A DNA stretch of 64,000 bases from the NCBI GenBank assembly GCA_963674965.2, contig CAXXFL010000002.1, forward strand, positions 1-64,000, read 5' to 3'. Shown here piece by piece: positions 28,601 to 61,323 of this stretch. Position numbers and translations under genes: made by a program. The first letter of the stretch is position 1. Each line of letters begins with the position of its first letter. The notes beneath the pieces were generated by a model. The model saw nothing but the letters and a program-made list of their open reading frames with translations. It searched no databases and had not been told where the DNA came from. The stretch is from a bacterium (lineage in GTDB: Bacteria > RBG-13-61-14 > DATKZS01).

Positions 28601-28790
28601 CCCTTCAGTTATATCATCACGTATTCCATCTAAAGCTTTCACGGCAATCCATCCAGCAAATTCATATTGTTGATCTTCAGCAATATAAATCTGATAATCG
28701 ACACATCCACCACTCCCACAATGAGCAGTAGCAACGTTAACTATATAGTTCATTTTTTGGTCGGAATTTAAATCGATTTTGTAAGATGTA

Positions 28791-30224
28791 CTGAACTTTA
28801 GAACTTTTTAGTCTGGTTTGCACGTATCGACATTAAGCAGCCTCCTTGAGGGGCGTAATTTCCTCTGGTTTGGGGTCGGAATGGAAAGCGGGAGAAATTC
28901 GCAAAGCCTTGTAGAAAGCGCGTCGGAGCCGACCGACGCTTGGGGGGCCGCTCGGGTCCCACCACGGTTCGGCCTCGATCTTTTCCGCCTCCGGGACGCA
29001 AAGGGCAAGCAGGCCCAAAAGGCCGTAGGCGACCAGGCAGAGGTTGGCGTGGCGCTTGATGGCCGTGAACGACCTCTGGCGATAGTCGCCGAAACCGCCC
29101 GCCGTCTTCACCTCCCGGAACAACTCCTCGATCTTCCAGCGGCCCGAATACGTTTCCAGCGCCCGCTCCGGCTTCATCTCGACGTCGGTGGTGAAAAACA
29201 CGTTCATTTTTTTGCCGGAGCGCCGGGGGAAAATGATGACGAGTATCGGCTTGTCGCCGAGGGTGGCGCTGGGGACCATCACCCCGACGAAGGCCTCGAT
29301 GGTAACGGTCTTGCCGTAAATCCTGGCCTTGATTTTTTCGCGCTTCGATCTTTTCAACCACAGTTGTTGGGGGCTGAACTTCTTGCCGCGCTTGGGCGGC
29401 CTTCCCGGACCATTCTTCCTTTTGGGGAGTTCGTAGAGCGCCGCGTTCGAGCGGAGGCGGCTGATCAGGACCACCTCTTTGCCGTCGAACTCGAGACCGG
29501 CCAACTTGGCCTTGGCGTAGAGGTTGTCCACCACCAGGACCAGTCTCCGAGCGGGCCAGGAGAACCTTTTTATCATCATGGCGGCCAACTCGATCTTGGT
29601 TTTGAACTCCCATCCCTTGGGGCAAAACTTTTCCTGGACGAAGAGCAGCGCCGAGAGGGGGAAGGCGAACCACTTGCCCCCGCGCTCCCATAGAAGCGCC
29701 ATCACCACCCAGCAGTGGCCGAGCCCCCGGCGCTTTTGATGGCCGGGGTTTTTGTCCGTCGGGTCCGGGTAATAGCCCAGACCGAAGAACTTCTTGCCCC
29801 ATTTCTTGACCAGGGTGTCGTCGACGGCGACGACGATCTCGTCCATGATCTTGAGTCGTTGGGCCACCAGGTCGAGCAGGCATTGACTCACCTTTTGGCA
29901 GGACCACCGGCCCTTGCGCATGAAAGCGTAGGGCGTGGTCCAGTGCATGACCCGGTGGACTTGGGTGAGGCGCATGACCTCGGTCACGCAGTGCTGGAGA
30001 CCGAACAGCGCCGCGTGGGCGATAATGAAGGTCTGGAAGTGCTCGAACCCGGGCTTGGAGAAGCAGTTGACAAATACAAGCATCAGCGGCAACATAAGAG
30101 CTTGAGCGTTCATCAGCGTTCACTCCCGCGTTATGAGGGCCGATCACACCTCTCATTATACGGGAAAAACTGGTGAACGCTATTTTTACATGGTGGAACA
30201 TGGCTAAAAAGTTCTAAAGTTCAG
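28791..30224 (-). mobile_element. IS4/IS701-like element, copy 2
   Basis: Near-identical to 5071-6504; 8-bp duplication AAGATGTA. Confidence 0.93.
28833..30113 (-). CDS. DDE transposase (IS4/IS701-like)
   Basis: One visible V>G difference from 5113-6393. Confidence 0.9.
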   Translation of the reverse strand: MNAQALMLPLMLVFVNCFSKPGFEHFQTFIIAHAALFGLQHCVTEVMRLTQVHRVMHWTTPYAFMRKGRWSCQKVSQCLLDLVAQRLKIMDEIVVAVDDTLVKKWGKKFFGLGYYPDPTDKNPGHQKRRGLGHCWVVMALLWERGGKWFAFPLSALLFVQEKFCPKGWEFKTKIELAAMMIKRFSWPARRLVLVVDNLYAKAKLAGLEFDGKEVVLISRLRSNAALYELPKRKNGPGRPPKRGKKFSPQQLWLKRSKREKIKARIYGKTVTIEAFVGVMVPSATLGDKPILVIIFPRRSGKKMNVFFTTDVEMKPERALETYSGRWKIEELFREVKTAGGFGDYRQRSFTAIKRHANLCLVAYGLLGLLALCVPEAEKIEAEPWWDPSGPPSVGRLRRAFYKALRISPAFHSDPKPEEITPLKEAA

Positions 30225-30446
30225 AAGATGTAATTTCATACATGCAATCGGAGGAGCCATCTTGTTGACACCAAACATAATTTGCATCGGCTTTTAAGCA
30301 TTTATTGAACACATCGACGGGTATAGCATATGTTTTTTGTAGCAATAAGTTATCTGGATTTTCAATGCCTTTACTTGATTCATCGTCTTGACTTTCAAGT
30401 CTAATAGCTTTCTGTGATTTAGAACAGGCAGAAGGAATTGAAATAA

Positions 30447-31789
30447 GGTTCAACGTATTTAAGTATGGGTATATTTAGCATGGAAAGCGCCCCTTATCTT
30501 TAGGAAGAAGTATTCCATGTCCCTGAAGCCGAAGGCAATGCGCTTTATCACCTTGATCTTGTTGTTCACTCCCTCGATGAGGCTGGTGTGAATAGGATAA
30601 CGGCAATGAGAGATGAGACCGGGCATGTGATCCTTGAGCTTCTTGGCGAATTTCTTCAAAGCGTCGATCCGCGATCTCATCGCTCGATGATACCAGTTCA
30701 TCAGCCACTTGCGCGACCAAGCCTCGCTTTTATACCTCCAGATCTGCTTGAGGTCGTCCTTAAGAACATAGACTTTGAAAAGCTTGCGGTTAAGCCGGAG
30801 GAGATCGGCCAACCGAACGTGCTCGCCCCTTTCCACGTCAAGGTTCGAGGCGTTTTTAAGAAGCAGGTAGCGGCTGCCCTTGATGGCTTCCTTGCGTTCG
30901 CCTCGGGCCATCCTGAATTCCTGGACCCGGACCTTGTCCACCACCTCGCGTCCGTAAGCCGAAATGACGTGGAAGGGATCGTAAACTATCGCGGCGTTAG
31001 GGCAATGCTCGCGAGTGGCCTCCTCATAAGGCTTCCACATGTCCATGGCCACCGCCTCGATCTTCTCGCACTTTTCCGGCCCCAGGGCCTCGTAAAAAAA
31101 GGACAGGCTCTCCTTGGTCCGGTCCAGGCCGATGTAGGGGATTTCACCGCTCTTGAAGTCGATCACGGCCGTGGCGTAGCGATGGCGGCGGCGGATGGAA
31201 AACTCGTCCACGCCGATGACGGTGGGAGAAGCCTCGGACGGATCGGGCACTCGCTCATCCAGCGCGGCCTTGTCTATGGCCTTGACCGTCTTCTCGTGGA
31301 GGCCGTACTGCTCGGCAACGGCCTTAAGGCTACGAATCTCCTCGCAGGCCAAAGCCACCTCGGCGGCAAGACGTTTCGAGTACTCGACCCGGGGAAGCGT
31401 CCACTCGAGGCTCTCGGTGACCACTCCGCAGTCGGGGCAATCAACGCGGACCTGATAGAAAAAAAGGTAACTCCGCTTGAAGACGCCGTAGGAAAGATCA
31501 CGGACGCAACGTTCGTCGCAGTCGTAATACGCGCTGAACTCCCTGCCGCATCTGCACTTGTAAACGTTGCGATCGCGCGAAAGCTCGATCATCAGGCTGG
31601 GGAATTCATCTCCCTCCCAAGTATGAGTGCTGACCCGATGAACGGAAAAACCTGGAATGTTGACCATAATATCGATATAATCCTTTTTGACCGCCATCTC
31701 GTCCTCCTTGTTTTGGTGCTTTTTGCTAAAACTACTCTGACAAAGAGAACGGGGGCGGTCAATTCACCCACACTAAATTACGTAGAACC
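30447..31789 (-). mobile_element. ISL3-family element 2
   Basis: IRs GGTTCAACGTATTTAAGTATGGGT / GGTTCTACGTAATTTAGTGTGGGT; no target duplication seen. Confidence 0.88.
30459..31697 (-). CDS. ISL3 transposase
   Basis: IGVDEF, AMDMW, YDPFH, EGVNNKIKVIKRIAFGFR. Confidence 0.93.
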   Translation of the reverse strand: MAVKKDYIDIMVNIPGFSVHRVSTHTWEGDEFPSLMIELSRDRNVYKCRCGREFSAYYDCDERCVRDLSYGVFKRSYLFFYQVRVDCPDCGVVTESLEWTLPRVEYSKRLAAEVALACEEIRSLKAVAEQYGLHEKTVKAIDKAALDERVPDPSEASPTVIGVDEFSIRRRHRYATAVIDFKSGEIPYIGLDRTKESLSFFYEALGPEKCEKIEAVAMDMWKPYEEATREHCPNAAIVYDPFHVISAYGREVVDKVRVQEFRMARGERKEAIKGSRYLLLKNASNLDVERGEHVRLADLLRLNRKLFKVYVLKDDLKQIWRYKSEAWSRKWLMNWYHRAMRSRIDALKKFAKKLKDHMPGLISHCRYPIHTSLIEGVNNKIKVIKRIAFGFRDMEYFFLKIRGAFHAKYTHT

Positions 31790-33373: not shown

Positions 33374-34267
33374 ATGGCTAAAAAGAAGCTGGAAGATCTT
33401 ACAATCGCGGTTATTCCTATCGAACAGATCCGGGTTATCAATCCCCGCGTGCGTGATAAAAACAAGTTTCATCGGATCGTCCGCAGCATGCCCCAGATCG
33501 GCATCAAGAGGCCGATAATAGTGAGCCGCGGAAAGCCTGGTGAAACCGAGGAGTCGGGATATGATCTGGTGTGCGGGCAGGGGCGTCTGGAGGCGTTTAT
33601 CGAGCTTGGCGAAAAGGAAATTCCCGCAATCGTGATTGATGCTTCCCAAAAACAGAGTCTGCAGATGAGTCTGGTGGAGAACCTGGCGCGTCGTCATAGC
33701 AGCTATTATGAATTGATTGGAAATCTTTTGTTGCAAAAGGATCGCGGGTACAGCAATCTTGAGATAGCCAATAAAACCGGGCTGACTGAAAATTACGTTA
33801 GAAGCATATTGAAGCTGCTGGAGGAGGGAGAAGAGCGTTTGGTAGAAGCGGTCGCGTCCGGGCGCATACCCATCAGCGCCGCTTTGGAAATAATGAAACT
33901 GGACGACTCACAGTTGCAGAGTTGGCTAACCGAAGCGTATGAGGACGGTGAGTTGAAAGGCAAGGAGCTGAGGATGACGCGGCGCATAGCTGAGAAGCGC
34001 ATGCTGATGGGCAAAACCAAGCATAAGTATCCTCACGGTCAAGGGGGCGGCAAGGCAGGTCTGCTAAGGGAGTATCAAAAGCAGGCCGAAATCCAGAAGC
34101 TGCAGGTAAAGAAGTCGGAATTGGCGGAGTATCGCCGCTCGATAGTCGAGGCCGCTTTTCGGCGACTGCTCGGCGATGAGAATTTTATCAATCTACTGCG
34201 CGCCGAAGGTTTGCAGGACATGCCGCGCATGCTGTCGGATGGAGCCCTCAAGGTTGACGGGCGATGA
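33374..34267 (+). CDS. ParB/RepB-like protein 1
   Basis: IGIKRPIIV, LVCGQGRLEA, SLVENLARR. Confidence 0.88.
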   Translation: MAKKKLEDLTIAVIPIEQIRVINPRVRDKNKFHRIVRSMPQIGIKRPIIVSRGKPGETEESGYDLVCGQGRLEAFIELGEKEIPAIVIDASQKQSLQMSLVENLARRHSSYYELIGNLLLQKDRGYSNLEIANKTGLTENYVRSILKLLEEGEERLVEAVASGRIPISAALEIMKLDDSQLQSWLTEAYEDGELKGKELRMTRRIAEKRMLMGKTKHKYPHGQGGGKAGLLREYQKQAEIQKLQVKKSELAEYRRSIVEAAFRRLLGDENFINLLRAEGLQDMPRMLSDGALKVDGR

Positions 34268-35148
34268 GCAAGAAAATCAAATGGGCTTTTAATGGCGAAA
34301 TGGTCGTCCTTCCCTTGGACAGAATACTTCCCGTCAAATCGATCAAATTCTCGACAAGTCATTCCAACAAATACAACAGCATTCTTGCCTCGATCAAAGA
34401 AGTGGGGCTGGTCGAGCCACTCGTGGTTTTTCCCGAAAAAGGCCGCAAGGGTTTTTATTGTCTACTGGACGGGCATCTTAGATACAAGGCGATTACTGAT
34501 CTTGGCTGGACTGAAGTCAAGTGCCTGGTCGCGAAGGATGAGGAGTACTTCAGCTATAATTATTACATCAACCGACTTGCAATTATCCAGGAGCACAGGA
34601 TGATTGTGGAGGCTCTAAGCAAGGGCTTATCTGAGGAAGAACTCGCCCGAACCCTCAATGTCGACGTTAAAAGGATTCGCGAACGCAGGGACATAGTGAA
34701 CGGCATCTGCCCGGAAGCGGTGGATATGCTGAAAGATAAACAGGTTGCCGTAAAGACTCTCAAGCTATTAAAAAAAGTCAAGCCCATTAGACAAATAGAG
34801 ATTGCTGAGACACTGGTTCGACTGAATTATTTCAGCGCAAAGTACGTGGAGGCACAGGTCCTGGCCACTGCGCCGGAGCTAATGGTTGATTCAGGAAAAT
34901 CAATAAAAGGGAAAGAGACCACACTTGCTGATATGGCAAAGTTGCGCAAAGAGCTGGAGACATTGGAGCGCAAGTATCGCCTGCTTGACGATTCGCTGGC
35001 CGAGAACACACTTAAAGTCGCCATATACCGTAAGTATTTAAAGCGTATACTAGACAACTCCAAGGTGAAGAAATATTTGTCCAAGAACTATCCAGAATTA
35101 TTGAGCGAGTTCAAGGAAATCATAGAAAAAGAGACGATCTCAGTGTAA
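34264..35148 (+). CDS. ParB/RepB-like protein 2
   Basis: SIKEVGLVEPLVV, LLDGHLRYKA; ATGA overlap with the previous gene. Confidence 0.88.
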   Translation: MSKKIKWAFNGEMVVLPLDRILPVKSIKFSTSHSNKYNSILASIKEVGLVEPLVVFPEKGRKGFYCLLDGHLRYKAITDLGWTEVKCLVAKDEEYFSYNYYINRLAIIQEHRMIVEALSKGLSEEELARTLNVDVKRIRERRDIVNGICPEAVDMLKDKQVAVKTLKLLKKVKPIRQIEIAETLVRLNYFSAKYVEAQVLATAPELMVDSGKSIKGKETTLADMAKLRKELETLERKYRLLDDSLAENTLKVAIYRKYLKRILDNSKVKKYLSKNYPELLSEFKEIIEKETISV

Positions 35149-35687
35149 TTGAGCATAACTTCATGCCCTGAGTATGTTTATAGTATGAATCGATGCGCAA
35201 ACCTGCCATAATGAGAAAAGATCATGGCCCGCCGAAAGGAAAGACCTTCGCAATATTGCTGACCTGAGATCTAGAGATTTTCTAGATTTTTCAAATTTTC
35301 CCGACACTTTCACATTTTCTCCGGTATATAATCTGCAGGAGCTTTTCATTTTTTCTGGCGATTGCCTTGCTTTGTTCCGAATCCGAGGCTCCGACGAGGA
35401 ATTTAATGGAACTTTTGAATCCTGATTTCGGATGGTTGACCCTCAACATGCTGATGAGCTTCGCCGAATTCGAGCGTGAGATTATCTCGGAGCGAACTCG
35501 GGACAAGATAGGAGCAGCAAGGAAAAAAGGGAAATGGACCGGCGGGCAGGTTCCCTTACGTTTCAGGATTGTGGACAAAAAATTGATTCTCAACGAGCCG
35601 GAGGCGGATGCGGTGCGGCCCTCTGTGCCAACGTAGATGAGACACTTCCCCTATGTTAAATTACTGTAGGGCGGGGGAGGTATTAGG

Positions 35688-36227
35688 ATGTATAGAGAGA
35701 TGGATGAAGACAGGAAGAAGGCAGGGATTGTTGGGGAGACGGAGGGAGCCCGTAGGGCGACCGGAGTCTCCCCAACCGGGACGGCCGAGCCGGAGGACAC
35801 TCCTGCCAAGCGGCCCGAGCGGGTGGGGGCGCCGATCATTCTTCCCGAGCCGGAGGTCCCGGAAAAGCCCGCCCGGCGGCGCTTCACCGCGGCTTACAAG
35901 CTCGCAATCCTCGGGAAGGCCGACGCCTGCTCGGGGCATGGCGAGGTCGGCGCCCTGCTGCGCCGGGAGGGCCTTTATTCGTCGCACCTGACGGCCTGGC
36001 GCAAGCAGCGGGACGAGGGGGCCTTGAAAGCGCTTTCGCCCGTAAAGCGGGGCCGCAAGCCCAAGGCCAAAAACCCGCTGGCCGATGAAGTGGCCCGCCT
36101 CGAGCGCGAGAACGGGAAGCTCCAAAAGCGGCTCGAACAGGCCGAGATGATAATCGACTTCCAAAAAAAAGTTGCCGATCTGCTGGGGATACCCCTGGCC
36201 AAGCCGCCCGGCGAAGAGAGCGAATGA
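35688..36227 (+). CDS. IS3-A OrfA
   Basis: HTH transposase N-terminal part. Confidence 0.88.
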   Translation: MYREMDEDRKKAGIVGETEGARRATGVSPTGTAEPEDTPAKRPERVGAPIILPEPEVPEKPARRRFTAAYKLAILGKADACSGHGEVGALLRREGLYSSHLTAWRKQRDEGALKALSPVKRGRKPKAKNPLADEVARLERENGKLQKRLEQAEMIIDFQKKVADLLGIPLAKPPGEESE

Positions 36228-37240
36228 TGGAATCGGCAAGCACGGCCGCTCCCCGGGTCGGCGCCAAGGCCGCCTGCGAGGCCCTGGGCCTGTCGCGAGC
36301 AACGTTTAATCGTCGCGCTAAAATTCCCTTCGGGCCTCCGCCGCCGAGGCGCGCGGCCAAGCCGGCAAGGTCGTTGAGCGAGGACGAGCGGCGCCGGGTG
36401 CTGGACGAACTCCACTCCGAGCGCTTTGCCGACAAGGCCCCCCGCGAGGTCTGGGCAACGCTCCTGGACGAGGGGACATGGCTGTGCTCGGTCCGCACCA
36501 TGTACCGCGTCCTCGACTCGGAAAAGGAAGTCCGGGAGCGGCGCAACCAACTCCGGCGTCCCCGATACAAAAAACCCGAGTTGCTGGCCGAGGCCCCCAA
36601 CCAGGTCTGGTCCTGGGACGTCACCAAACTCAAGGGACCGGCCAAATGGACCTGCTACCAACTCTACGTGATCATGGACATCTTCAGCCGCTGCGTGGTG
36701 GGATGGATGATCGCCGGACGCGAAAGCGCGGAGCTGGCCCGCCGCCTGATCGGGGACAGCATCCGAAAACAGGGGATCGAGCCGGGACAACTCACCATCC
36801 ACGCCGACCGGGGGAGTTCGATGAAATCAAAGCCGGTGGCCTTCTTGATGGCCGACCTGGGCGTGACCAAGAGCCACTCGCGGCCCCACGTGTCCGACGA
36901 CAACCCCTACTCGGAAAGCCAGTTCAAGACCATGAAGTACCGGCCCGAGTTCCCGAGCCGGTTCGGCTCCATCGAGGACGCCAGGGCCTTTTGCGTGAAG
37001 TTTTTCGATTGGTACAACCGCGAGCATCGGCACACCGGGATCGGCCTGATGACGCCCGAGATGGTCCATTACGGAATGGCGAGCGAGATCGTGGCCGCCA
37101 GGCAAAAAACGCTCGACCACGCCTATGAAAAAAAACCGGAGCGCTTCGTGAAAAGACCGCCGACGGCGCCGGAGTTGCCCGGCAAAGCGTGGATCAACCC
37201 ACCGGCGAAACCGGAGGAAATAAACAGTTTGCCACACTAA
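36224..37240 (+). CDS. IS3-A OrfB
   Basis: rve DDE domain. Confidence 0.93.
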   Translation: MMESASTAAPRVGAKAACEALGLSRATFNRRAKIPFGPPPPRRAAKPARSLSEDERRRVLDELHSERFADKAPREVWATLLDEGTWLCSVRTMYRVLDSEKEVRERRNQLRRPRYKKPELLAEAPNQVWSWDVTKLKGPAKWTCYQLYVIMDIFSRCVVGWMIAGRESAELARRLIGDSIRKQGIEPGQLTIHADRGSSMKSKPVAFLMADLGVTKSHSRPHVSDDNPYSESQFKTMKYRPEFPSRFGSIEDARAFCVKFFDWYNREHRHTGIGLMTPEMVHYGMASEIVAARQKTLDHAYEKKPERFVKRPPTAPELPGKAWINPPAKPEEINSLPH

Positions 37241-38233
37241 ATTCAGGAAAGGCGTGTCTCATTTTGCTTGACACATTCCGCGGCGGGTGTTCGATCTCTA
37301 TATCGATTGCCGATCCCCGCTTGCGGTTTTCCAAAGCCTTTCTGATAATTTGGAAAACATAGACAGTAACCGCAAATGGAACAAGCACACGGTTCTGCGC
37401 ATGCTGAAAAATCCGCTTTATGCGGGCTACATATCTTACGGAAACAATCTCTATGAAGGCGAACATGCTTCAATAGTGGACAAAGATAAGTTCCATGCCG
37501 TCCAGAAACTTATTCGTGACAATACCCGAACCCGCCAGGTTTCTACAGATGAATATCTTCTGCAGGGACTGACTCGTTGTGCAGCCTGCGGGGCCGCTTA
37601 TACTCCAGCCTCAGCCAAACGAGGAAAAAACAAGCGGCGCTATTACCGCTGCCTTACCCGCGATAAACAGGGCCGGGACGCCTGCCCCGCCCGGCCACTG
37701 CCCGCGGAATCACTCGAGAAATATGTGGTTGATCGGGTAAAGGACGCCGCGTCCGAGATCGACAATCCTGACGATTTATTGTCATCCGTTAGACGGAATT
37801 ATGCGGCCAGGCTTCAGGAAAGGAACATGGAACGTCAACGACTGCCTAAGATGATCGGCGAACTTGCGGCAAAAGGGCACGAGATCGCTAAAAATATGGA
37901 GCAGGCAAAGGGGGAGGATTGGAAAAAACTCGATGCCAGGCTCGGCTGCTTGTACGATGAACTGGGGAAGATGGACCACAATCTTTGCCAAGTGGAACGG
38001 AACATCGCTGCTCTGAAAAAGCAACATGAAGAGGTCGAGTGGATGATTAGCGTTATGAGACGATTTGACTCGGTATGGGATGCCTTGACATCTGAAAACA
38101 AACGCCGACTACTGCGCGCAATTGTAAGTGAAATCATCATCGACGAGCCTTGTGGCAAGGTGGAAATGAAAATTGTCGATTACTCGGCCGCGGGGCCTCC
38201 TTATGTTAACAAGAAGACGCGCTGGAGGATACC

Positions 38234-38653
38234 ATGATCGAATCCGAACAACTCATTAAAACGATGACCGCATATATTTTTCGCGCCCGCCGGGGACGGG
38301 AGACTATATTGTCCGCCGAGCCTCCAGTTAAACCAGAACCCCCCACTTTGAAACCGATTCCCCTTGCGGTATTGCTAGGGCAGGCTCATCATCTGCAAAA
38401 GGAGCTTGACCATGGCGGATGCGGCAACCGGGCTGACCTGGCTCGGCGGCACGGTCTCACACGGGCCCGCCTTACCCAGATACTGAACCTGCTCCTATTG
38501 GCCCCGCAAATCCAGGAGGAGATTTTATTCATGGAATCGACCAGTAAAAGAGATGCCATTAGCGAACGCAGGCTGCGTGACATTATCCAGGCCGAGGACT
38601 GGAACCAACAGCTGAGACAGTGGGAATTGCTGAAGTCTTCATGCGGGACTTGA
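38234..38653 (+). CDS. Small HTH protein accompanying serine recombinases
   Basis: RADLARRHGLTRARLTQILNLLLLAPQIQEEIL; paralog at 58917. Confidence 0.75.
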   Translation: MIESEQLIKTMTAYIFRARRGRETILSAEPPVKPEPPTLKPIPLAVLLGQAHHLQKELDHGGCGNRADLARRHGLTRARLTQILNLLLLAPQIQEEILFMESTSKRDAISERRLRDIIQAEDWNQQLRQWELLKSSCGT

Positions 38654-38722: not shown

Positions 38723-39406
38723 ATGAGCCATATGAATAGAAAAATCTCGGAATGTAATGGCTTGAAAAAGGGATCGGGAAAGCCCATTACTCTGGATATC
38801 CTCTTTCATGACGGGCTTTCGCAATTCATCGTGCGTAAGATCGACCCAATAAGTTTCCATGGCTATAAACGGAGGATAGCTCTGGACCATGAAGATAGAG
38901 AGTGCTCCACCGCATTGCTCACCGATGACGGCCTCCACCTTATGCCCAACGGCTGTACAGCGGAAATGTACCTGGATGAGGAAGGGGACCATGTCGAGCG
39001 GAAGGAAATCATTGCTTGTGATGAAGCTGGAAACTCATTAGCTGAATTTCCAGCCACCGCCGGGGCTCCACAGACGATATCAGGCCCGGTTCCGGCCAGT
39101 GAGATTTTGGAGCATGTCGTCACGGCGGTTTCTCTACTGGAAGCGAAAACGCTGGACTCGGGATTGCAGGACTCACTCGAAGCTGGCGAAATTTATCGGA
39201 CATCGTTCCGGCCGCGCAAAACATACCATGACAATCCCGCATTCCTGCTCAAGGGAGTTGAGGGATTTTTCCTGATCGTGGGTGAGCGATGTCGATTCGA
39301 GTATGCTCGGCGTGGGCAATTGATCAACTTCGCCGATAATTACGAGAACGATGACGCTCAGGATTTCTTTGATATGGGATTTAGAGCCTGGAGAGGTTTT
39401 TCGTGA
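38723..39406 (+). CDS. Hypothetical protein, divergent Ku-like (subunit 1)
   Basis: By-eye similarity to the bacterial Ku core (GDHVERKEII; GPVPASEI..LLE; FRPR..AFLL); acidic tail. Confidence 0.55.
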   Translation: MSHMNRKISECNGLKKGSGKPITLDILFHDGLSQFIVRKIDPISFHGYKRRIALDHEDRECSTALLTDDGLHLMPNGCTAEMYLDEEGDHVERKEIIACDEAGNSLAEFPATAGAPQTISGPVPASEILEHVVTAVSLLEAKTLDSGLQDSLEAGEIYRTSFRPRKTYHDNPAFLLKGVEGFFLIVGERCRFEYARRGQLINFADNYENDDAQDFFDMGFRAWRGFS

Positions 39407-40113
39407 GCGCGCGCAAGATCAGGATCACGGACCATCTTGGCAGGGATGCGGTAGTGGCGCTGGAAGCATGTCGTCTTGGTAAAAACATCACGTACAAGAG
39501 CATGAGCGGATCGACCATTCGCCATGTTCGCCTTGTGAAGGGCTGCACGACAAATAATCATGAAGCTTTGATTGATCGTTTCGGTGATGGACAGGCTCTT
39601 GCCAAGGCATTGATTGAGGGCGACCCGGAAATAGACATGGAGGCGGTGGGCAAGGAGACTGGTCAGTGCAGGAGGGTATTCGTGAATGGCCAAGACCAGC
39701 CATTGTACGCGGCAAAAATCATGGAGGTCGTTTATGGTCCTGATGGCTCGGAATGTGAACGACGGGAACCGAAGCCATATCACTCGAACCTCCTCGATCC
39801 TCGTCCCTGGTCCGGGAAGCTATTACCTCGTAATGTCACGGCCCGGCGTTTTGCATTCACGCGGAAGTACATGGTCAGGCACGTTGACGCCCTTACCTTC
39901 GACTTTCTATTTTCGCTTGCCGGTTACCTCGAAGAGCGAGATAGCCTGGCTATTATCGGCTCCGGACCTGACAGCCTGGGCCCTCTGATCCTTGAACGAA
40001 ACGGCGCTCCCATGCTGGGATTGCTCGAGGGCAGGACAGACGGCGACAGCTACCTGCTGGTTTTGCATCTCGCGGCTTTCGAGTTGCGGCGCCCGCTGGA
40101 GATCGTTTTATGA
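39403..40113 (+). CDS. Hypothetical protein, divergent Ku-like (subunit 2)
   Basis: FTRKYMV..FLFSLAGYLEERDSLAII..LLVLHL..ELRRP resembles the Ku C-terminal half; GTGA overlap with the previous gene. Confidence 0.55.
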   Translation: MSARKIRITDHLGRDAVVALEACRLGKNITYKSMSGSTIRHVRLVKGCTTNNHEALIDRFGDGQALAKALIEGDPEIDMEAVGKETGQCRRVFVNGQDQPLYAAKIMEVVYGPDGSECERREPKPYHSNLLDPRPWSGKLLPRNVTARRFAFTRKYMVRHVDALTFDFLFSLAGYLEERDSLAIIGSGPDSLGPLILERNGAPMLGLLEGRTDGDSYLLVLHLAAFELRRPLEIVL

Positions 40114-43100
40114 TTGTCGATCCGTCCCGCTGGAAGCCATTTGGGCAAGGACGCATTGCTCCTCCGGGCTCCATAGTGAACACTGTTCTTGCAGCCCGAT
40201 TGGCCGCGTACAAACGTAACGTGGCGTCCAGCTATCGGAGCGTATCACCGGACAACATCTTGCAGACCATTCCGCCCGGCAGCCATATTCTGTCACCGAA
40301 GATAGACGGCGAGTGCTGGTTCCTGTATGCGTGGGATGGAGAGGTCGATCTGCTGTCGCCTTCAGGCAGGGCGATTACCGGCATCCCGATTACCCATAAA
40401 GCTGCGGAGAACCTGGGTGATCAAAGAATGCTTGTTGCTGGAGAGCTTTATGCCGAGAGCAACTCGGGCAGGTCACATATCCACGACATCATGTCAGCTT
40501 TGAAGACAGGAGAGCATGCCGATCCCGACCGGTTGCGTTTTGCCGCATTTGACCTGATACAGGATAATGACAAGGATGCGCAGGCATGGTCCTTTCCCCA
40601 ACGGGTTGGGAGGTTACAGGAAATATTCGACACCGGCGATAAAATCCACATCGCTGATTTCAAAACAGCCGATTCGCCCCATGCCGTCGCTCATGCGTTC
40701 GAGCAGACCGTGACCCAAGGTGGAGCGGAAGGAATCGTACTCCGATTAGAAAACGGCGGGATTTTAAAGATCAAACCTGAGATTACCATCGATGCTGCGG
40801 TGGTCGGATACGCTGAATCTCAGGGTCGAGTCCATGAACTTCTCCTTGCCCTGGTGCTGAACGACAATCGCTTTATGCTGATCGGCAGAGTATCTATTGG
40901 CATGAGTGCAGTCGAGAAGATGGACCTTCATGAACGTTTTTCTGAGATGTCCTGCCAATCGAGTTTCCGAAAGGTCACCGACCAGGGAGTCCTTTATCGC
41001 TGGGTACGCCCGAAAATCGTCGTCGAAGTAAAATGCAATGATATCATCAAATCTGACAGCAAGGACCGTCCTGTACGCAGGATGCTGTTGGATTACTCTG
41101 AGGATGGTTGGTCACCCGTAGGGACAACGAACAGCATAAGCATGATAAACGCCGTCTTTCTGCGCATGCGTCATGACAAATCCGTGAGCGTAGCAGAGGC
41201 AGGGATGAGACAGGTGACGGACCATGTCCATCTTGAAGAAACCAAACAACCGCAACTTGATCCTGCTGAAGCGCTTCGCCGCGAGGTCTACACCAAGGAA
41301 GGAAAATCCGGGATAACCGTTCGAAAAGTAGTTACCTGGAAAACCAACAAGCATGGTGCGGACGATTTGTATCCCCCATACGTCGCCTTCTTCACCGATT
41401 ACTCTGCTGCTCGCAAGGAGCCGCTTAAAACCAGCCTGCGTATAGCCTCCACGTTGGAGAAGATAGACAAGATCGCTGACCAATGGCTGGCCGAGAACAT
41501 TAAACGAGACTGGAATTGCGTTAGCCGTGACCTCACAGATCAATCCAACATCATTCATCAAGAAGTCACCCAGGATAATTCAGCGACGTCTTCCAAACAA
41601 TTTTCCCTTCCGAAGACAGTTGAAAAAAACGTCACTATATCATTCGCCCGTAGCGCCTCGCCGTCATTCCCCATCGCCAGGAAACGCCTCAAATCTCTGT
41701 CCGATAGTGGCGCGCTCATGATCGAGACGGACGATAAGGACCGCGAGGTTTGGTACTCTCTTACCATCGGATCTGGTAACCTGGTCGAGCTCGCCCGTAG
41801 AATCTCTAACCTCACCCGCATGGTCCGGGGGTGGAAGTCCGCAGAGTTCTGCATCTCGAGAGAACCGGTCAAGCCAATCGACTTTGGAGCATTTATTAAT
41901 CGACTGGAAGAGGTAGACCGTTGCCGCCGCAAGAAAATCCGTGAGGCTTCAGAGTCGTGCGCTAACAATTGTCGATTGGGATGTGATCAACTCTTTATCA
42001 AGCCCGTCAAACAATCCCTTGACTCGTACCAATCCCGGCAGTTGTGGTGGACGGTCGGGAACTTCGATGGCCGAATGCTGAAAATAGACAAGAGGAAACT
42101 CAAGCGACAAGCTTCTGCCTCTAGAAACGAGCTATACCGGCTGTGTCCTAACTATGATAGTAAAGCCGTAGCGCAAAACATAGATTGTCTGCCCGAAGTT
42201 ATCACTGCAGAGGCCGAGGGCTGGAAAATTATTTATCGCAGGGAAGACGGATCGCCCGCATGGCTATGGCCGGTTAAGCACCCACTGCCCTTCGGGTTTT
42301 CTGATGCGAGGCGTGTGGGCGTAGCGGATGCAAAAGGCGCGATGGAACATGGCCAGCCACATGCTGCGCCACTCCGAAATATCTCTACTGTATCTTACTT
42401 GGACGTCCGCGGGCAGGACGAAGCGGTCGAGGCCGTGCGAGACATGGTCGAGCTACCGATAACGCATGCGGACCTGTTCGCTCAGGTGGGCGTGAGTGGC
42501 GCTGGTGGAGGAATCATTCTCGCGGGACCGCCGGGGACAGGTAAAACTCTTTTGGCCAGGGCCGTGGCTGGCGAGAGTAAAGCGCATATCGAAATAGTAG
42601 CGGGGCCGGAACTCCTGTCGAAATGGTTCGGTGAGTCCGAGAGAAGGTTGCGCGCTGTCTTTAAAAGAGCCCGTGAGCTTCAGCCATCCATCATTCTCTT
42701 CGACGAACTTGACGGAATCGCCGGAACCAGAAATGGAGATTCCAGCCAACGAACCTTTGTTGCCCAATTGCTAACGCTACTCGATGGCATTGAAAGCCGA
42801 GGGCAAGTATTCGTGATCGCTACAACCAACCGGCCCAACGACATAGATCCCGCGCTTCGTCGTCCCGGAAGGTTCGACAGGGTCGTAAACATGGACCTAC
42901 CAAATAAGTCCGGTCGCAAGTCTCTTTTCGAACATCACACCAGAAACATGAAGATCTCCCAGGACATTGATTTTACGCAACTGGCCACTATAACTCCCAG
43001 TCTCTCCGGAGCCCAGATCGCTTTCATCTGTAGACGCGCTGGTGTCCTGTGCATAAAGGAGGCCATAATTGAAGGGCCTTTCAAACAGTCCATGTCCGTT

Positions 43101-43196
43101 AAAAGTAAACATTTAATAAAAGCAATTGAAGAGATGAGGCCAACAAGCTCTCAATCCCATGTCAGTGATTGGATGCCAACAGAAAGTGCTCTTTAA
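40110..43196 (+). CDS. ATP-dependent DNA ligase-like / WGR-like / Cdc48-type AAA+ ATPase fusion
   Basis: KIDGE, AGELY, FAAFDLI, EGIVLR, KIKP, OB fold, FLRMRHDK; GPPGTGKT, ILFDELD, TTNRPNDIDPALRRPGRFDR. Confidence 0.85.
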   Translation: MIVDPSRWKPFGQGRIAPPGSIVNTVLAARLAAYKRNVASSYRSVSPDNILQTIPPGSHILSPKIDGECWFLYAWDGEVDLLSPSGRAITGIPITHKAAENLGDQRMLVAGELYAESNSGRSHIHDIMSALKTGEHADPDRLRFAAFDLIQDNDKDAQAWSFPQRVGRLQEIFDTGDKIHIADFKTADSPHAVAHAFEQTVTQGGAEGIVLRLENGGILKIKPEITIDAAVVGYAESQGRVHELLLALVLNDNRFMLIGRVSIGMSAVEKMDLHERFSEMSCQSSFRKVTDQGVLYRWVRPKIVVEVKCNDIIKSDSKDRPVRRMLLDYSEDGWSPVGTTNSISMINAVFLRMRHDKSVSVAEAGMRQVTDHVHLEETKQPQLDPAEALRREVYTKEGKSGITVRKVVTWKTNKHGADDLYPPYVAFFTDYSAARKEPLKTSLRIASTLEKIDKIADQWLAENIKRDWNCVSRDLTDQSNIIHQEVTQDNSATSSKQFSLPKTVEKNVTISFARSASPSFPIARKRLKSLSDSGALMIETDDKDREVWYSLTIGSGNLVELARRISNLTRMVRGWKSAEFCISREPVKPIDFGAFINRLEEVDRCRRKKIREASESCANNCRLGCDQLFIKPVKQSLDSYQSRQLWWTVGNFDGRMLKIDKRKLKRQASASRNELYRLCPNYDSKAVAQNIDCLPEVITAEAEGWKIIYRREDGSPAWLWPVKHPLPFGFSDARRVGVADAKGAMEHGQPHAAPLRNISTVSYLDVRGQDEAVEAVRDMVELPITHADLFAQVGVSGAGGGIILAGPPGTGKTLLARAVAGESKAHIEIVAGPELLSKWFGESERRLRAVFKRARELQPSIILFDELDGIAGTRNGDSSQRTFVAQLLTLLDGIESRGQVFVIATTNRPNDIDPALRRPGRFDRVVNMDLPNKSGRKSLFEHHTRNMKISQDIDFTQLATITPSLSGAQIAFICRRAGVLCIKEAIIEGPFKQSMSVKSKHLIKAIEEMRPTSSQSHVSDWMPTESAL

Positions 43197-43477
43197 TGTT
43201 AGGACCGTTGACTCTCCTGACGGCGGATAATCTCCGTAAAGCGAGATACTATCTCGGCCGTGATATGTTTGGGATTAGATTTTCTTATGGTCTGAGCGAT
43301 CATCTCAGCGCTTTTTCCGGGGATTCCTCCTGCTTTGTGAAGCTCGACTATAAGCTGAAGGCCCCATAGGAGAGGGACTCCTTCTTGCTTGCAAAGTTTT
43401 CGAAGGTTCCCTCTGTGCCAACGTAGATGAGACACTTCCCCTATGTTAAATTACTGTAGGGCGGGGGAGGTATTAGG

Positions 43478-44017
43478 ATGTATAGAGAGATGGATGAAGA
43501 CAGGAAGAAGGCAGGGATTGTTGGGGAGACGGAGGGAGCCCGTAGGGCGACCGGAGTCTCCCCAACCGGGACGGCCGAGCCGGAGGACACTCCTGCCAAG
43601 CGGCCCGAGCGGGTGGGGGCGCCGATCATTCTTCCCGAGCCGGAGGTCCCGGAAAAGCCCGCCCGGCGGCGCTTCACCGCGGCTTACAAGCTCGCAATCC
43701 TCGGGAAGGCCGACGCCTGCTCGGGGCATGGCGAGGTCGGCGCCCTGCTGCGCCGGGAGGGCCTTTATTCGTCGCACCTGACGGCCTGGCGCAAGCAGCG
43801 GGACGAGGGGGCCTTGAAAGCGCTTTCGCCCGTAAAGCGGGGCCGCAAGCCCAAGGCCAAAAACCCGCTGGCCGATGAAGTGGCCCGCCTCGAGCGCGAG
43901 AACGGGAAGCTCCAAAAGCGGCTCGAACAGGCCGAGATGATAATCGACTTCCAAAAAAAAGTTGCCGATCTGCTGGGGATACCCCTGGCCAAGCCGCCCG
44001 GCGAAGAGAGCGAATGA
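43478..44017 (+). CDS. IS3-A OrfA
   Basis: Identical to 35688-36227. Confidence 0.88.
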   Translation: MYREMDEDRKKAGIVGETEGARRATGVSPTGTAEPEDTPAKRPERVGAPIILPEPEVPEKPARRRFTAAYKLAILGKADACSGHGEVGALLRREGLYSSHLTAWRKQRDEGALKALSPVKRGRKPKAKNPLADEVARLERENGKLQKRLEQAEMIIDFQKKVADLLGIPLAKPPGEESE

Positions 44018-45030
44018 TGGAATCGGCAAGCACGGCCGCTCCCCGGGTCGGCGCCAAGGCCGCCTGCGAGGCCCTGGGCCTGTCGCGAGCAACGTTTAAT
44101 CGTCGCGCTAAAATTCCCTTCGGGCCTCCGCCGCCGAGGCGCGCGGCCAAGCCGGCAAGGTCGTTGAGCGAGGACGAGCGGCGCCGGGTGCTGGACGAAC
44201 TCCACTCCGAGCGCTTTGCCGACAAGGCCCCCCGCGAGGTCTGGGCAACGCTCCTGGACGAGGGGACATGGCTGTGCTCGGTCCGCACCATGTACCGCGT
44301 CCTCGACTCGGAAAAGGAAGTCCGGGAGCGGCGCAACCAACTCCGGCGTCCCCGATACAAAAAACCCGAGTTGCTGGCCGAGGCCCCCAACCAGGTCTGG
44401 TCCTGGGACGTCACCAAACTCAAGGGACCGGCCAAATGGACCTGCTACCAACTCTACGTGATCATGGACATCTTCAGCCGCTGCGTGGTGGGATGGATGA
44501 TCGCCGGACGCGAAAGCGCGGAGCTGGCCCGCCGCCTGATCGGGGACAGCATCCGAAAACAGGGGATCGAGCCGGGACAACTCACCATCCACGCCGACCG
44601 GGGGAGTTCGATGAAATCAAAGCCGGTGGCCTTCTTGATGGCCGACCTGGGCGTGACCAAGAGCCACTCGCGGCCCCACGTGTCCGACGACAACCCCTAC
44701 TCGGAAAGCCAGTTCAAGACCATGAAGTACCGGCCCGAGTTCCCGAGCCGGTTCGGCTCCATCGAGGACGCCAGGGCCTTTTGCGTGAAGTTTTTCGATT
44801 GGTACAACCGCGAGCATCGGCACACCGGGATCGGCCTGATGACGCCCGAGATGGTCCATTACGGAATGGCGAGCGAGATCGTGGCCGCCAGGCAAAAAAC
44901 GCTCGACCACGCCTATGAAAAAAAACCGGAGCGCTTCGTGAAAAGACCGCCGACGGCGCCGGAGTTGCCCGGCAAAGCGTGGATCAACCCACCGGCGAAA
45001 CCGGAGGAAATAAACAGTTTGCCACACTAA
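44014..45030 (+). CDS. IS3-A OrfB
   Basis: Identical to 36224-37240. Confidence 0.93.
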   Translation: MMESASTAAPRVGAKAACEALGLSRATFNRRAKIPFGPPPPRRAAKPARSLSEDERRRVLDELHSERFADKAPREVWATLLDEGTWLCSVRTMYRVLDSEKEVRERRNQLRRPRYKKPELLAEAPNQVWSWDVTKLKGPAKWTCYQLYVIMDIFSRCVVGWMIAGRESAELARRLIGDSIRKQGIEPGQLTIHADRGSSMKSKPVAFLMADLGVTKSHSRPHVSDDNPYSESQFKTMKYRPEFPSRFGSIEDARAFCVKFFDWYNREHRHTGIGLMTPEMVHYGMASEIVAARQKTLDHAYEKKPERFVKRPPTAPELPGKAWINPPAKPEEINSLPH

Positions 45031-45387
45031 ATTCAGGAAAGGCGTGTCTCATTTTGCTTGACACATTCCGGTTTTTATCGTTGGTCACACAGGTGAAGCC
45101 ATGCCGTTTTGCCGCTAGGAGACATAGTCGGTCCTGAAACGATGTCGGTCCGGGTTGAGTGGCTGCGGCAAAGGCATCCTCGATTTCGGGCTCAATGATA
45201 ATAAGACCAAGCTCGACAAGTTCGTTTTCGTCATCTATCTGGTTGACTTCGTCTACTACAGGGCTGGCCACATGGAGTGGTCCCACGTATTTCACAACAA
45301 GTTGAAGAATAGCTCGGTCCGCATTGATGAAATCAATGAGGACACAAGCATCCATGATCATCAATTGGGGATTTCGTTGGCGCTTCG

Positions 45388-46500
45388 TCAAAGAACAGCC
45401 TCCCAATTATCGAGGAGATCCCGCATCTCCTCAATACCAATGTGAAGCATTTCCGCGCCACGACTGATAGAAATTTTGTCCTTTTCAAGGGCCTTTCTGA
45501 CAAGACGACTGAAGCGGTCCTCGTAAAAATCGAATCGCTGTAATCCATATGGCTCAGCGGAGTCAATGGCCATTGGTTCTTCCTTAAAGGCGAGTTTTCG
45601 ATTGAATCGTTTCTGATAGGCAACATTGAATTTCATCCAGATGGACTTGTCCGCGACTTCGTGTTCAATGAGTCGAGCCAAAACGGTTTTATAGCTGACA
45701 CGGAAAATTCGTTTGACTTTAAAGACCCTGTCTACGAAGTGCAATCCCGATGCATCATTCCATTCTTTGAGAAATCCCTTGTCCGGCATTATGAAATGTC
45801 CGGCAAAAAAATCAGCCTCTTGCTCCTCTTTTTTGTTTTCCTCAGTTTGAGAAACATCATAGGCGTCAGGATGCAGCATGAGATGACCGAGTTCGTGGGC
45901 TGCGCTAAAGATCCGCCTCTCAACGGTAATCCTTTCCCAAACGTTTACTGCTATGGCAGGGCCTCCGTCCTTTTCTCCCACTGATAATCCGAAAAAACCA
46001 TCAGAAGCCATGGGAACAGACCGCACTTTTATACCTGCATGTTCGAGCAATCCGCAGATATCGTATAATGGCTCGTCATCCCAGAGTTCCAATTTCTTCC
46101 GGCAAAGCTCGGCGGAACGGACGATATTCTCATTGGAGCAGCGCACCCTGACCTTCTTTAGCTCAAAAGGAATTCTCTCGCCGAGAGTTCCCTCTAGGTA
46201 ATTGAAATCCTCTAGCCATCTGGACACCTCTGCCAGGATATTTTCACGGTACTGTACCTTCCGGGTAGAGCGAAACCTTACGGTCTGCAAATCCCTTACC
46301 GGCAAAAAGAGTTCCCGGAGATTAACATCAAGCGCTTTAGCGATTGCTTGAATGGTCTTCATCCGAGGTTCGTTTTTGGCAAGTTCCATGTTCTTGACTG
46401 CGGGCAGGGATATACCTGCTGCTTCAGCCAATGCCTTTTGGCTGAAGCGCTTTGCAGTCCTAAACCGCCTCACGTTTTTAGCGAGTATCTGCAAGTTCAT
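45388..46500 (-). CDS. XRE-HTH + ImmA/IrrE metallopeptidase
   Basis: N-terminal SQKALAEAAGIS HTH; FSAAHELGH; EQEADFFAGHFIMP. Confidence 0.9.
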   Translation of the reverse strand: MNLQILAKNVRRFRTAKRFSQKALAEAAGISLPAVKNMELAKNEPRMKTIQAIAKALDVNLRELFLPVRDLQTVRFRSTRKVQYRENILAEVSRWLEDFNYLEGTLGERIPFELKKVRVRCSNENIVRSAELCRKKLELWDDEPLYDICGLLEHAGIKVRSVPMASDGFFGLSVGEKDGGPAIAVNVWERITVERRIFSAAHELGHLMLHPDAYDVSQTEENKKEEQEADFFAGHFIMPDKGFLKEWNDASGLHFVDRVFKVKRIFRVSYKTVLARLIEHEVADKSIWMKFNVAYQKRFNRKLAFKEEPMAIDSAEPYGLQRFDFYEDRFSRLVRKALEKDKISISRGAEMLHIGIEEMRDLLDNWEAVL

Positions 46501-46528
46501 AGCAATCTCCTTTCCCGACCACATCCCT

Positions 46529-59350: not shown

Positions 59351-59551
59351 AGATAGAATCCTTGTTCTTTCTTTCTCCCACTGTTCCTCTGTCCCCAGGA
59401 ATTCCAGGAAATGTTCCTTTGCGGAATCCGGATCGTCCTTTACCCACTGATTCCACATTTCTTCACCCATCTTGTCGCACTCCCCTCTGTGCCAACGTAG
59501 ATGAGACACTTCCCCTATGTTAAATTACTGTAGGGCGGGGGAGGTATTAGG

Positions 59552-60091
59552 ATGTATAGAGAGATGGATGAAGACAGGAAGAAGGCAGGGATTGTTGGGG
59601 AGACGGAGGGAGCCCGTAGGGCGACCGGAGTCTCCCCAACCGGGACGGCCGAGCCGGAGGACACTCCTGCCAAGCGGCCCGAGCGGGTGGGGGCGCCGAT
59701 CATTCTTCCCGAGCCGGAGGTCCCGGAAAAGCCCGCCCGGCGGCGCTTCACCGCGGCTTACAAGCTCGCAATCCTCGGGAAGGCCGACGCCTGCTCGGGG
59801 CATGGCGAGGTCGGCGCCCTGCTGCGCCGGGAGGGCCTTTATTCGTCGCACCTGACGGCCTGGCGCAAGCAGCGGGACGAGGGGGCCTTGAAAGCGCTTT
59901 CGCCCGTAAAGCGGGGCCGCAAGCCCAAGGCCAAAAACCCGCTGGCCGATGAAGTGGCCCGCCTCGAGCGCGAGAACGGGAAGCTCCAAAAGCGGCTCGA
60001 ACAGGCCGAGATGATAATCGACTTCCAAAAAAAAGTTGCCGATCTGCTGGGGATACCCCTGGCCAAGCCGCCCGGCGAAGAGAGCGAATGA
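59552..60091 (+). CDS. IS3-A OrfA
   Basis: Identical to 35688-36227. Confidence 0.88.
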   Translation: MYREMDEDRKKAGIVGETEGARRATGVSPTGTAEPEDTPAKRPERVGAPIILPEPEVPEKPARRRFTAAYKLAILGKADACSGHGEVGALLRREGLYSSHLTAWRKQRDEGALKALSPVKRGRKPKAKNPLADEVARLERENGKLQKRLEQAEMIIDFQKKVADLLGIPLAKPPGEESE

Positions 60092-61104: not shown

Positions 61105-61323
61105 ATTCAGGAAAGGCGTGTCTCATTTTGCTTGACACATTCCGCTCTTCGCAATTTTGGTTTACGAAATTTTCTATCTGCTTCTTGCTGGGCCGTCTAC
61201 GATAAATCTTTTCTTTTGGCCTGTTACAAAGCCAACATGCACAGCGTAAAATCCAGGTCTTCTCGGACTCGGACTTTGAGTCTCCCTGAGTCAAAGTATG
61301 CTTTACAGGTCCGTCGAAAAACA

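Follow-up and report, generated by a model that had tools for sequence, protein, structure and literature searches.

Non-homologous end joining (NHEJ) in bacteria, as it is usually taught, is carried out by one Ku homodimer together with LigD, is restricted to a minority of species and is found in genomes by means of a Ku sequence profile. Mu Gam is a phage-encoded Ku. Three points from published reports, each taken from a portion of the paper cited, bear on the locus described here. The C-terminus of bacterial Ku recruits LigD (PMC9638933). In eukaryotes, p97 extracts Ku that has become trapped on DNA (PMC5577460). Ku3 and Ku4 of Sinorhizobium meliloti, accompanied by LigD4, form a co-encoded and co-maintained bacterial pair and a putative heterodimer (PMC6379672). 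We analyzed a stretch of 64,000 nucleotides (positions 1 to 64,000 of contig CAXXFL010000002.1, assembly GCA_963674965.2; hereafter the window) from a bacterium of the lineage RBG-13-61-14. At positions 38723 to 43196 the window carries a cassette of three genes, and we lean slightly towards reading this cassette as a cryptic NHEJ-like DNA end-joining module.

The cassette consists of three intact open reading frames (ORFs) on the forward strand:

38723-39406, + strand: ORF1, 227 amino acids, ATG start; candidate Ku-fold subunit A, of a family with a conserved acidic C-terminal tail that is modified in the clade of the window
39403-40113, + strand: ORF2, 236 amino acids, GTG start; candidate Ku-fold subunit B, tail-less
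40110-43196, + strand: ORF3, 1028 amino acids, ATG start; putative ligase fused to a Cdc48-type AAA ATPase

The junction between ORF1 and ORF2 is a 4-nt overlap with the sequence GTGA (39403-39406), and that between ORF2 and ORF3 is a 4-nt overlap with the sequence ATGA (40110-40113); at both, the start codon lies on the preceding stop. A first-pass annotation made from the sequence alone had described this arrangement of three overlapping, coupled and intact genes, and had interpreted them as two different Ku-like proteins and a ligase on a mobile island, acting in repair or in anti-phage sensing of DNA ends. Its coordinates and junctions match ours, and the second copy of the trio in the same genome is also intact (96-97% nucleotide identity, 0 stops, 0 indels). 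The interpretation as a whole is partly supported.

Relatives of ORF2 were sought in one genome per species from 185,579 species, and 458 stretches were found to encode one. The locus-level counts given here refer to the best 80 of these 458 ORF2-bearing loci, whose carriers include Myxococcota, Planctomycetota, Armatimonadota, Bacillota, Bacteroidota, Chloroflexota and other phyla. A word-indexed search returned 142 homologues of ORF2, and an ORF1 profile matched 936 representative clusters at an expectation value (E) of 1e-3 or less. An ORF1 homologue lies upstream in 77/80 loci; of the three misses, two are cut by contig ends and the third is locus L033. The ligase gene is directly downstream in 76/80 loci. 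Three of the four loci that miss it lie on contigs ending no more than 130 bases after ORF2, and the fourth, L055, has 655 bases left with no match in them. All 73 loci that have both ORF1 and the ligase are colinear, with the three genes on the same strand in the order ORF1-ORF2-ligase, so the synteny of the trio seen in the window is conserved elsewhere. Clustering of all flanking ORFs gave no conserved fourth gene in more than 10/80 loci, and a census of 141 neighboring proteins from 46 of the 80 loci was heterogeneous, with no family present in more than four loci. Since no fourth gene recurs, the unit comprises exactly three genes. We note that two loci look decayed. In L033 (8001-9388), 8 kb of sequence upstream of ORF2 contains no homologue of ORF1, and the ligase is reduced to a fragment of 225 residues; in L022 (3001-5771) the ligase and the middle-plus-AAA part are in different frames.

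ORF1 and ORF2 match no family in Pfam, NCBIfam, PADLOC or PHROGs. The evidence for their kinship with Ku comes from predicted structures. AlphaFold2 models were built for ORF2 on an alignment of 51 sequences (predicted local distance difference test score, pLDDT, 79.9) and for ORF1 on 11 sequences (pLDDT 54.6, a low value), and each model was searched separately with Foldseek against 350,542 PDB chains. Among the matches listed, all of the roughly 50 top PDB matches of each model were Ku chains, at a probability of 1.00 and over 200-260 aligned columns. The ORF2 model retrieved Mycobacterium tuberculosis Ku (9i91, E 1.4e-5), Bacillus subtilis Ku (9vnq, E 3.7e-4) and Ku70/80 chains, while for ORF1 the best matches were Ku80 chains (E 4.1e-5) and M. 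tuberculosis Ku (9i91, E 6e-5); mycobacterial Ku 8v53 and many Ku70/80 entries were also among the top matches of the models. In the viral structure library BFVD, the sole real match of the ORF2 model was a mycobacteriophage Ku (E 1.1e-3), the next match having a probability of 0.08. The ESM Atlas gave no usable match for ORF2. By predicted-structure search, both subunits would therefore have a Ku core fold, which is what the first-pass annotation had proposed.

The two subunits are strongly diverged from one another, again as first proposed. When the ORF1 and ORF2 families were aligned with hhalign, the match had an E of 0.0015-0.0018 and a probability of 15-17%, over 131-135 colinear columns of the C-terminal halves. 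Judged from these profiles, ORF1 and ORF2 appear to be different, at most faintly related families. They also differ at their ends. In the family alignment nearly all ORF1 homologues, unlike those of ORF2, finish with a stretch of acidic residues and then, at the extreme C-terminus, an almost invariant D-L-D-F-S-M-M. This ending resembles a short docking peptide, and in the clade to which the window belongs (window 39300-39403) it is longer and altered.

A complex of ORF1 and ORF2 was predicted from the 62-row ORF1 alignment and the 51-row ORF2 alignment, together with three controls. The interaction prediction score from aligned errors (ipSAE) was 0.75, 0.76 and 0.74 for the ORF1+ORF2 pair, as compared to 0.00 for the best of the three controls. 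In a benchmark of this ipSAE mark, it was reached by 58/80 solved complexes and by 2/110 mismatched pairs. The predicted interface comprises 352-383 contacts with a partner pLDDT of 75-76, and the runs agree on at least 77% of contacts. It spans the C-terminal strands as well as central segments that were low-confidence or disordered in the monomers of both chains. When the contacts are projected onto the alignment of the ORF1 and ORF2 profiles, residue 133 of ORF1 meets its own equivalent, residue 152 of ORF2, and the contact pairs 194-218 and 183-228 almost mirror each other. These self-equivalent and mirror-image contacts suggest a pseudo-twofold dimer derived from a homodimer. ORF1 and ORF2 are thus predicted to form one large pseudo-symmetric heterodimer, and the heterodimer that had been conjectured from sequence is borne out as a prediction. 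This pair would, we infer, form a Ku-like ring on DNA ends.

The third gene had been called a clear ATP-dependent ligase. That call holds for its N-terminal part, and it overlooked an AAA motor and two further conserved domains. The parts of ORF3 are:

40236-41180, + strand: ligase nucleotidyltransferase and OB domains (ORF3 residues 43-357; PF01068, PF04679), with Lys64 in motif I
41262-41519, + strand: extra domain after the OB fold (ORF3 ~385-470, ~90 residues), conserved in short and long ligases and detected by BLAST in short-form loci
41637-42299, + strand: four-cysteine domain (ORF3 ~510-730), in long forms only, with invariant Trp 575, 646 and 718
42375-43139, + strand: AAA ATPase of the Cdc48/VAT/p97 type (ORF3 ~756-1010), with Walker A/B, pore-loop K-W-F-G, sensor 1 and arginine-finger

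The ligase part matches PF01068 (E 1.8e-10) and PF04679 (E 7.9e-10), both above their cut-offs. Among NCBIfam models it comes nearest to TIGR02779, the NHEJ ligase domain (E 4.7e-22, 78.6 bits against a cut-off of 227.75), and the LigD model TIGR02776 scores 62 bits against a cut-off of 373. Across 68 aligned homologues, conservation reaches at least 90% in each of motifs I, III, IIIa, IV, V and VI. With a nucleotidyltransferase domain, an OB domain and all six motifs, the ORF3 core appears to belong to the ATP-dependent DNA ligase superfamily. The Pfam scan of ORF3 returned PF01068, PF04679 and AAA families only, with no polymerase or phosphoesterase domain. ORF3 thus lacks the LigD architecture and is the non-LigD ligase that the first-pass annotation had suspected.

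Between the ligase and AAA parts lie about 400 residues without a known family. The ~385-470 domain has no known family in Pfam, and the middle region has no match in Pfam, PDB (phmmer) or the ESM Atlas. Within the middle region, Cys 605, 617, 625 and 679 (window 41922-42146; C-x11-C-x7-C-x53-C) are invariant in 116/116 aligned long forms and may be a zinc or iron-sulfur site. The AAA module matches PF00004 (E 5e-42) and AAA_lid_3 PF17862 (E 4e-7), and its Walker A/B, pore-loop, sensor and arginine-finger regions are conserved in the 116 long forms. Its best solved relatives are archaeal VAT and p97/Cdc48 (E ~1e-122 to 1e-118). The CDC48 subfamily model matches ORF3 with an E of 2.8e-76 and 257 bits, below its full-length cut-off of 802, and there is a single AAA module where the full Cdc48 architecture has an N domain and tandem D1/D2 rings. 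The module is thus Cdc48-like, without ORF3 being an orthologue of Cdc48. Full-length homologues of ORF3 with the same architecture number at least 154.

In most loci the ligase is a short form of 480-570 residues that ends after the ~385-470 domain. The long form carrying the AAA fusion was found in 14/80 loci and in the window. In a quick maximum-likelihood tree, the long forms make up one clade, with a Shimodaira-Hasegawa-like approximate likelihood ratio test (SH-aLRT) value of 99, plus two rows cut by contig ends, and several phyla are mixed within it. The motor is an add-on, as the short forms show.

The AAA domain also invites a different explanation, namely that the cassette is an anti-phage or anti-plasmid defence system in which a Ku-like ring senses the DNA ends of invaders and the ligase-AAA protein is the effector. 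The cassette sits on a mobile island, and its AAA domain matches the PADLOC IetA models (4.2e-31) and the NCBIfam model 'anti-phage ATPase IteA' (1.7e-28, below cut-off). A 2026 paper ties mycobacterial NHEJ to phage defence in the part of it considered here (PMC12848934). These PADLOC and NCBIfam matches, however, cover the generic AAA module only (IetA, TRIP13), and much higher scores come from the CDC48 and PAN models. Neither ORF1 nor ORF2 has a match among the PADLOC models, the cassette has no IetS-like protease and so does not have the composition of IetAS, and no defence family stands out among the 141 neighboring proteins from 46 of the 80 loci. The short form, moreover, has no ATPase effector, and a fully conserved ligase active site would be odd for an effector. 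We consider a defence function highly unlikely, and the anti-phage role raised in the first-pass annotation found no backing in the PADLOC matches or in the gene neighborhoods.

If the cassette is instead an NHEJ-like end-joining module, its parts could act in four steps, all of which we infer. First, ORF1 and ORF2, as anciently diverged Ku-fold paralogues, would assemble as a pseudo-symmetric heterodimer that binds DNA ends. Second, the acidic tail of ORF1 would probably recruit the ligase, by analogy with the Ku C-terminus that recruits LigD, perhaps through the ~385-470 extra domain of the ligase. Third, the ligase, which has all the catalytic motifs and is devoid of polymerase and phosphoesterase domains, would accordingly seal ends that are compatible and already ligatable. 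Fourth, in the long forms, the fused Cdc48/VAT-type hexameric unfoldase would remove the ring, which would be topologically trapped after sealing, or would remove other end-bound proteins. The ring-stripping role of the motor is a tentative suggestion by analogy with p97, and we hold it to be doubtful.

Several results count against an end-joining module built on Ku-fold subunits. The Pfam Ku model (PF02735) does not match ORF1 or ORF2 themselves at an E of 1 or less, and it matches 0/62 ORF1-family and 0/51 ORF2-family members at an E of 0.1 or less. When the two families were compared by hhalign with canonical Ku, represented by an alignment of 4 proteins drawn from carrier genomes and related ones, the probabilities were 1.6%, 0.12% and 0.08%. 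At the level of sequence, where the first-pass annotation had drawn a likeness to mycobacterial Ku by eye, the resemblance to Ku is statistically nil; the top ORF1 fragment in this comparison, itself insignificant, covers residues 81-102 and falls on a segment that the annotation had picked. A profile search of PDB sequences did not retrieve Ku either. The structural matches have low likeness in global terms, with template modelling scores (TM-scores) of 0.34-0.41 against Ku and root-mean-square deviations of 10-19 Å, and the ORF1 monomer model is poor (pLDDT 54.6). We attribute the low TM-scores and high deviations to the long central arms, which were modelled with low confidence in the monomers. 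The complex prediction may draw on Ku dimers that the predictor has memorized. With respect to the later steps, the short forms have no AAA module at all, so ring removal is not obligatory, and the neighbor surveys revealed no end-processing enzyme linked to the cassette. Finally, canonical Ku (PF02735) is present in 5/15 other carrier genomes. The cassette is thus not a simple substitute for canonical Ku, and we rejected the idea that it is a clean replacement.

The weak global likeness raises the question of whether ORF1 and ORF2 share a beta-barrel architecture with Ku and nothing more, the pair binding, for example, RNA or protein as the substrate of an enzyme that seals RNA or adenylates proteins. 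The low TM-scores and the missing sequence signal are in keeping with this, as is a weak match of ORF3 to RNA_ligase (PF09414, E 0.018), and DNA as the substrate is itself something we deduce. Yet two separately modelled and barely related families retrieve Ku alone, near full length and in two libraries. In the family scans the enzyme scores best against DNA ligase domains, the NHEJ ligase model heading the list, and the pair is strictly coupled to a ligase gene, as Ku is in Ku-LigD operons. On this evidence we regard a shared barrel without shared function as decidedly improbable.

We return to the end-joining module and its position among described systems. Like bacterial Ku-LigD, the cassette encodes a small protein of predicted Ku fold beside an ATP-dependent ligase, the ligase core is nearest to an NHEJ ligase domain model, and the C-terminal tail of a Ku-like subunit may be a recruiting arm. 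It differs in having two different subunits where the known system has one, neither of them seen by the Ku hidden Markov model. Its ligase lacks the polymerase and phosphoesterase domains of LigD and has extra domains of its own, including, in the clade of the window, the AAA motor. By predicted fold and linkage to a ligase we class the cassette with the NHEJ kind; since the Ku sequence model and the LigD architecture both fail to describe it, it falls outside the Ku and LigD families. The likeness to eukaryotic Ku70/Ku80 and DNA ligase IV lies in a heterodimer of diverged Ku-fold paralogues, here a predicted one, and in a putative recruiting tail on one subunit. The likeness to extraction of Ku by p97/VCP (Cdc48), as outlined in part of PMC5577460, lies in a Cdc48-type unfoldase tied to end joining. 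Unlike Ku70/80 and p97, the cassette has no vWA or SAP domains and no linked ubiquitin system, and its motor, whose action on the ring is conjectural, is joined covalently to the ligase, with a single AAA ring in place of two.

A bacterial precedent is Ku3-Ku4 with LigD4 of S. meliloti, where, according to the portion of PMC6379672 used here, one subunit likewise lacks motifs present in the other. Ku3 and Ku4 are ordinary PF02735 proteins that go with a LigD, however, whereas the cassette subunits lie outside the Ku sequence family and are paired with a non-LigD ligase. Phage-encoded Ku resembles the cassette in being a Ku-fold protein on a mobile element, and the mycobacteriophage Ku was the only real viral structural match. 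The phage proteins are single-subunit and use a host ligase, whereas the cassette comes with a ligase of its own and is absent from the phage and plasmid collections searched. We found no published description of the cassette in the literature, supplementary gene-neighborhood tables lying outside the search, and such proteins go unmentioned in the covered parts of a 2025 survey of Ku evolution (PMC11936186).

The boldest version of this reading is a second, sequence-invisible NHEJ in at least 6 phyla, with an obligate Ku70/80-like heterodimer and its own ligase, in which the Cdc48-type fusion of the mobile clade unloads the trapped ring. We put this forward as a speculative proposal that is possible and, at present, improbable in its entirety. 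What makes it worth pursuing is that two families for which Pfam and NCBIfam have no model, one of which comprises 936 representative clusters, appear to be unrecognized forms of Ku. If this is true, surveys of NHEJ-capable bacteria are incomplete, and the heterodimer, regarded as typical of eukaryotes, has its parallel in bacteria. The fusion of ligase and Cdc48-type motor would then be a simple, reconstitutable system for removal of a DNA-encircling ring once the break is sealed, which is an open question for bacterial Ku, and a prokaryotic, ubiquitin-free counterpart of p97-dependent Ku extraction. Neither heterodimeric Ku nor motor-driven Ku removal would be a eukaryotic invention. Genome engineering in laboratory strains might also benefit from so compact an end-joining kit of three genes.

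In the window, the cassette lies on an integrative island, which has a second copy elsewhere in the genome:

31792-46765, no strand assigned: integrative island of ~13 kb with the cassette; second copy at 809713-822457 of contig C6, with 93-97% identity
35619-37280, + strand: IS3-family insertion sequence (IS), 1662 bp, with HTH_Tnp_1 and rve ORFs; splits the serine recombinase gene and is absent from the C6 island
38234-38653, + strand: recombinase-associated accessory gene of 139 amino acids, between the recombinase and ORF1 and outside the conserved trio; intact in both copies
43409-45070, + strand: second IS copy, 100% identical to 35619-37280, 213 bp downstream of ORF3; its flanks are contiguous in C6

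Besides the trio, the island comprises two ParB/RepB-like genes, a large serine recombinase (split), the 139-residue gene, a small ORF interrupted by an IS, and a gene of the HTH-Peptidase_M78 type. Its identity to the C6 copy holds after removal of the two 1662-bp IS copies, which are present in the window version only. This gene content and the second copy bear out the mobile location that had been proposed. The accompanying statement that nearly every neighbor is IS-disrupted was overstated: the recombinase is indeed split by an IS, but the ParB/RepB-like pair and the 139-residue gene are intact. The latter matches phrog_14161 'recombinase' (E 7.5e-19), and in L003 and L024 its homologues are neighbors of serine recombinases. 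The source genome (6.5 Mb, 97.6% complete) is the only one of the 13 genomes of its small phylum with the cassette, in two copies, and neither it nor the other 12 genomes of the phylum contain canonical Ku. Both genomic copies of the trio are intact, with ratios of non-synonymous to synonymous substitution (dN/dS) between them of 0.44, 0.13 and 0.39.

This location raises a further possibility, that in the long-form cassette the same biochemistry benefits the carrier element, either by resealing clean double-strand cuts made by host restriction or CRISPR systems on entry or by protecting and rejoining the ends of the element, as counter-defence or maintenance rather than host repair. The cassette occurs on a serine-recombinase island with ParB/RepB-like genes, present twice and in 1/13 genomes of the phylum. 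The long-form clade mixes several phyla, and its relatives also adjoin serine recombinases and other mobile-element genes, among them the 139-residue gene, DUF4314/DUF5049, DUF2924, and Amidoligase_2 with GATase_6. A ligase without end-processing domains would moreover suit clean enzymatic cuts. Against this, the cassette was absent from 50,697 phage records, 72,556 plasmid records and IMG/VR contigs, and most loci, being short forms, have ordinary chromosomal neighbors. The short-form cassettes adjoin chromosomal and housekeeping genes; at locus L061, from an isolate genome, the cassette is flanked by transporter, kinase and tRNA-modification genes. Genes downstream in ten other loci mostly bear no relation to each other; closely related loci supply the exceptions, which are two histidine kinases and two MerR-TPR genes. 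We judge a benefit to the element to be unlikely. The link of the motor to the mobile clade leaves room for one that may serve the element, for example in resealing restriction cuts.

Some neighbors recur among small groups of loci. In two Armatimonadota loci, L009 (5643-7369) and L020 (5604-7354), Amidoligase_2 and GATase_6 genes lie directly before the cassette on the same strand. Several relatives of the long-form clade in Myxococcota, namely L002 (756-1166), L003 (5339-5749) and L006 (4003-4461), encode a small DUF4314-DUF5049 protein directly upstream of ORF1.

At the left end of the island, the ParB_N/RepB-like genes (33374-35148) are adjacent and overlapping. Between the island copies their dN/dS is 0.08 and 0.03, a stronger constraint than in the trio, and their synonymous divergence (dS) is 0.26-0.29, as compared to 0.05-0.13 for the trio. 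These differences in dN/dS and dS along its length suggest that the island is mosaic or recombined. Also inside the island, an HTH and Peptidase_M78 gene of the ImmA/IrrE type (45388-46524, - strand) overlaps by 19 bases the start of a 140-residue ORF (44984-45406, - strand), which runs into the end of the second IS copy; a 78-residue ORF (43199-43435) lies on the other side of that IS. With the flanks contiguous in C6, a gene near 43199-45406 may be split here by the IS. The 1662-bp IS3-family element is present in dozens of copies of 98-100% identity on all seven contigs, including a further copy in the window at 59483-61145, and two more IS types with many genomic copies are found at ~28789-30224 and 30444-31789. 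The genome is in a phase of IS expansion.

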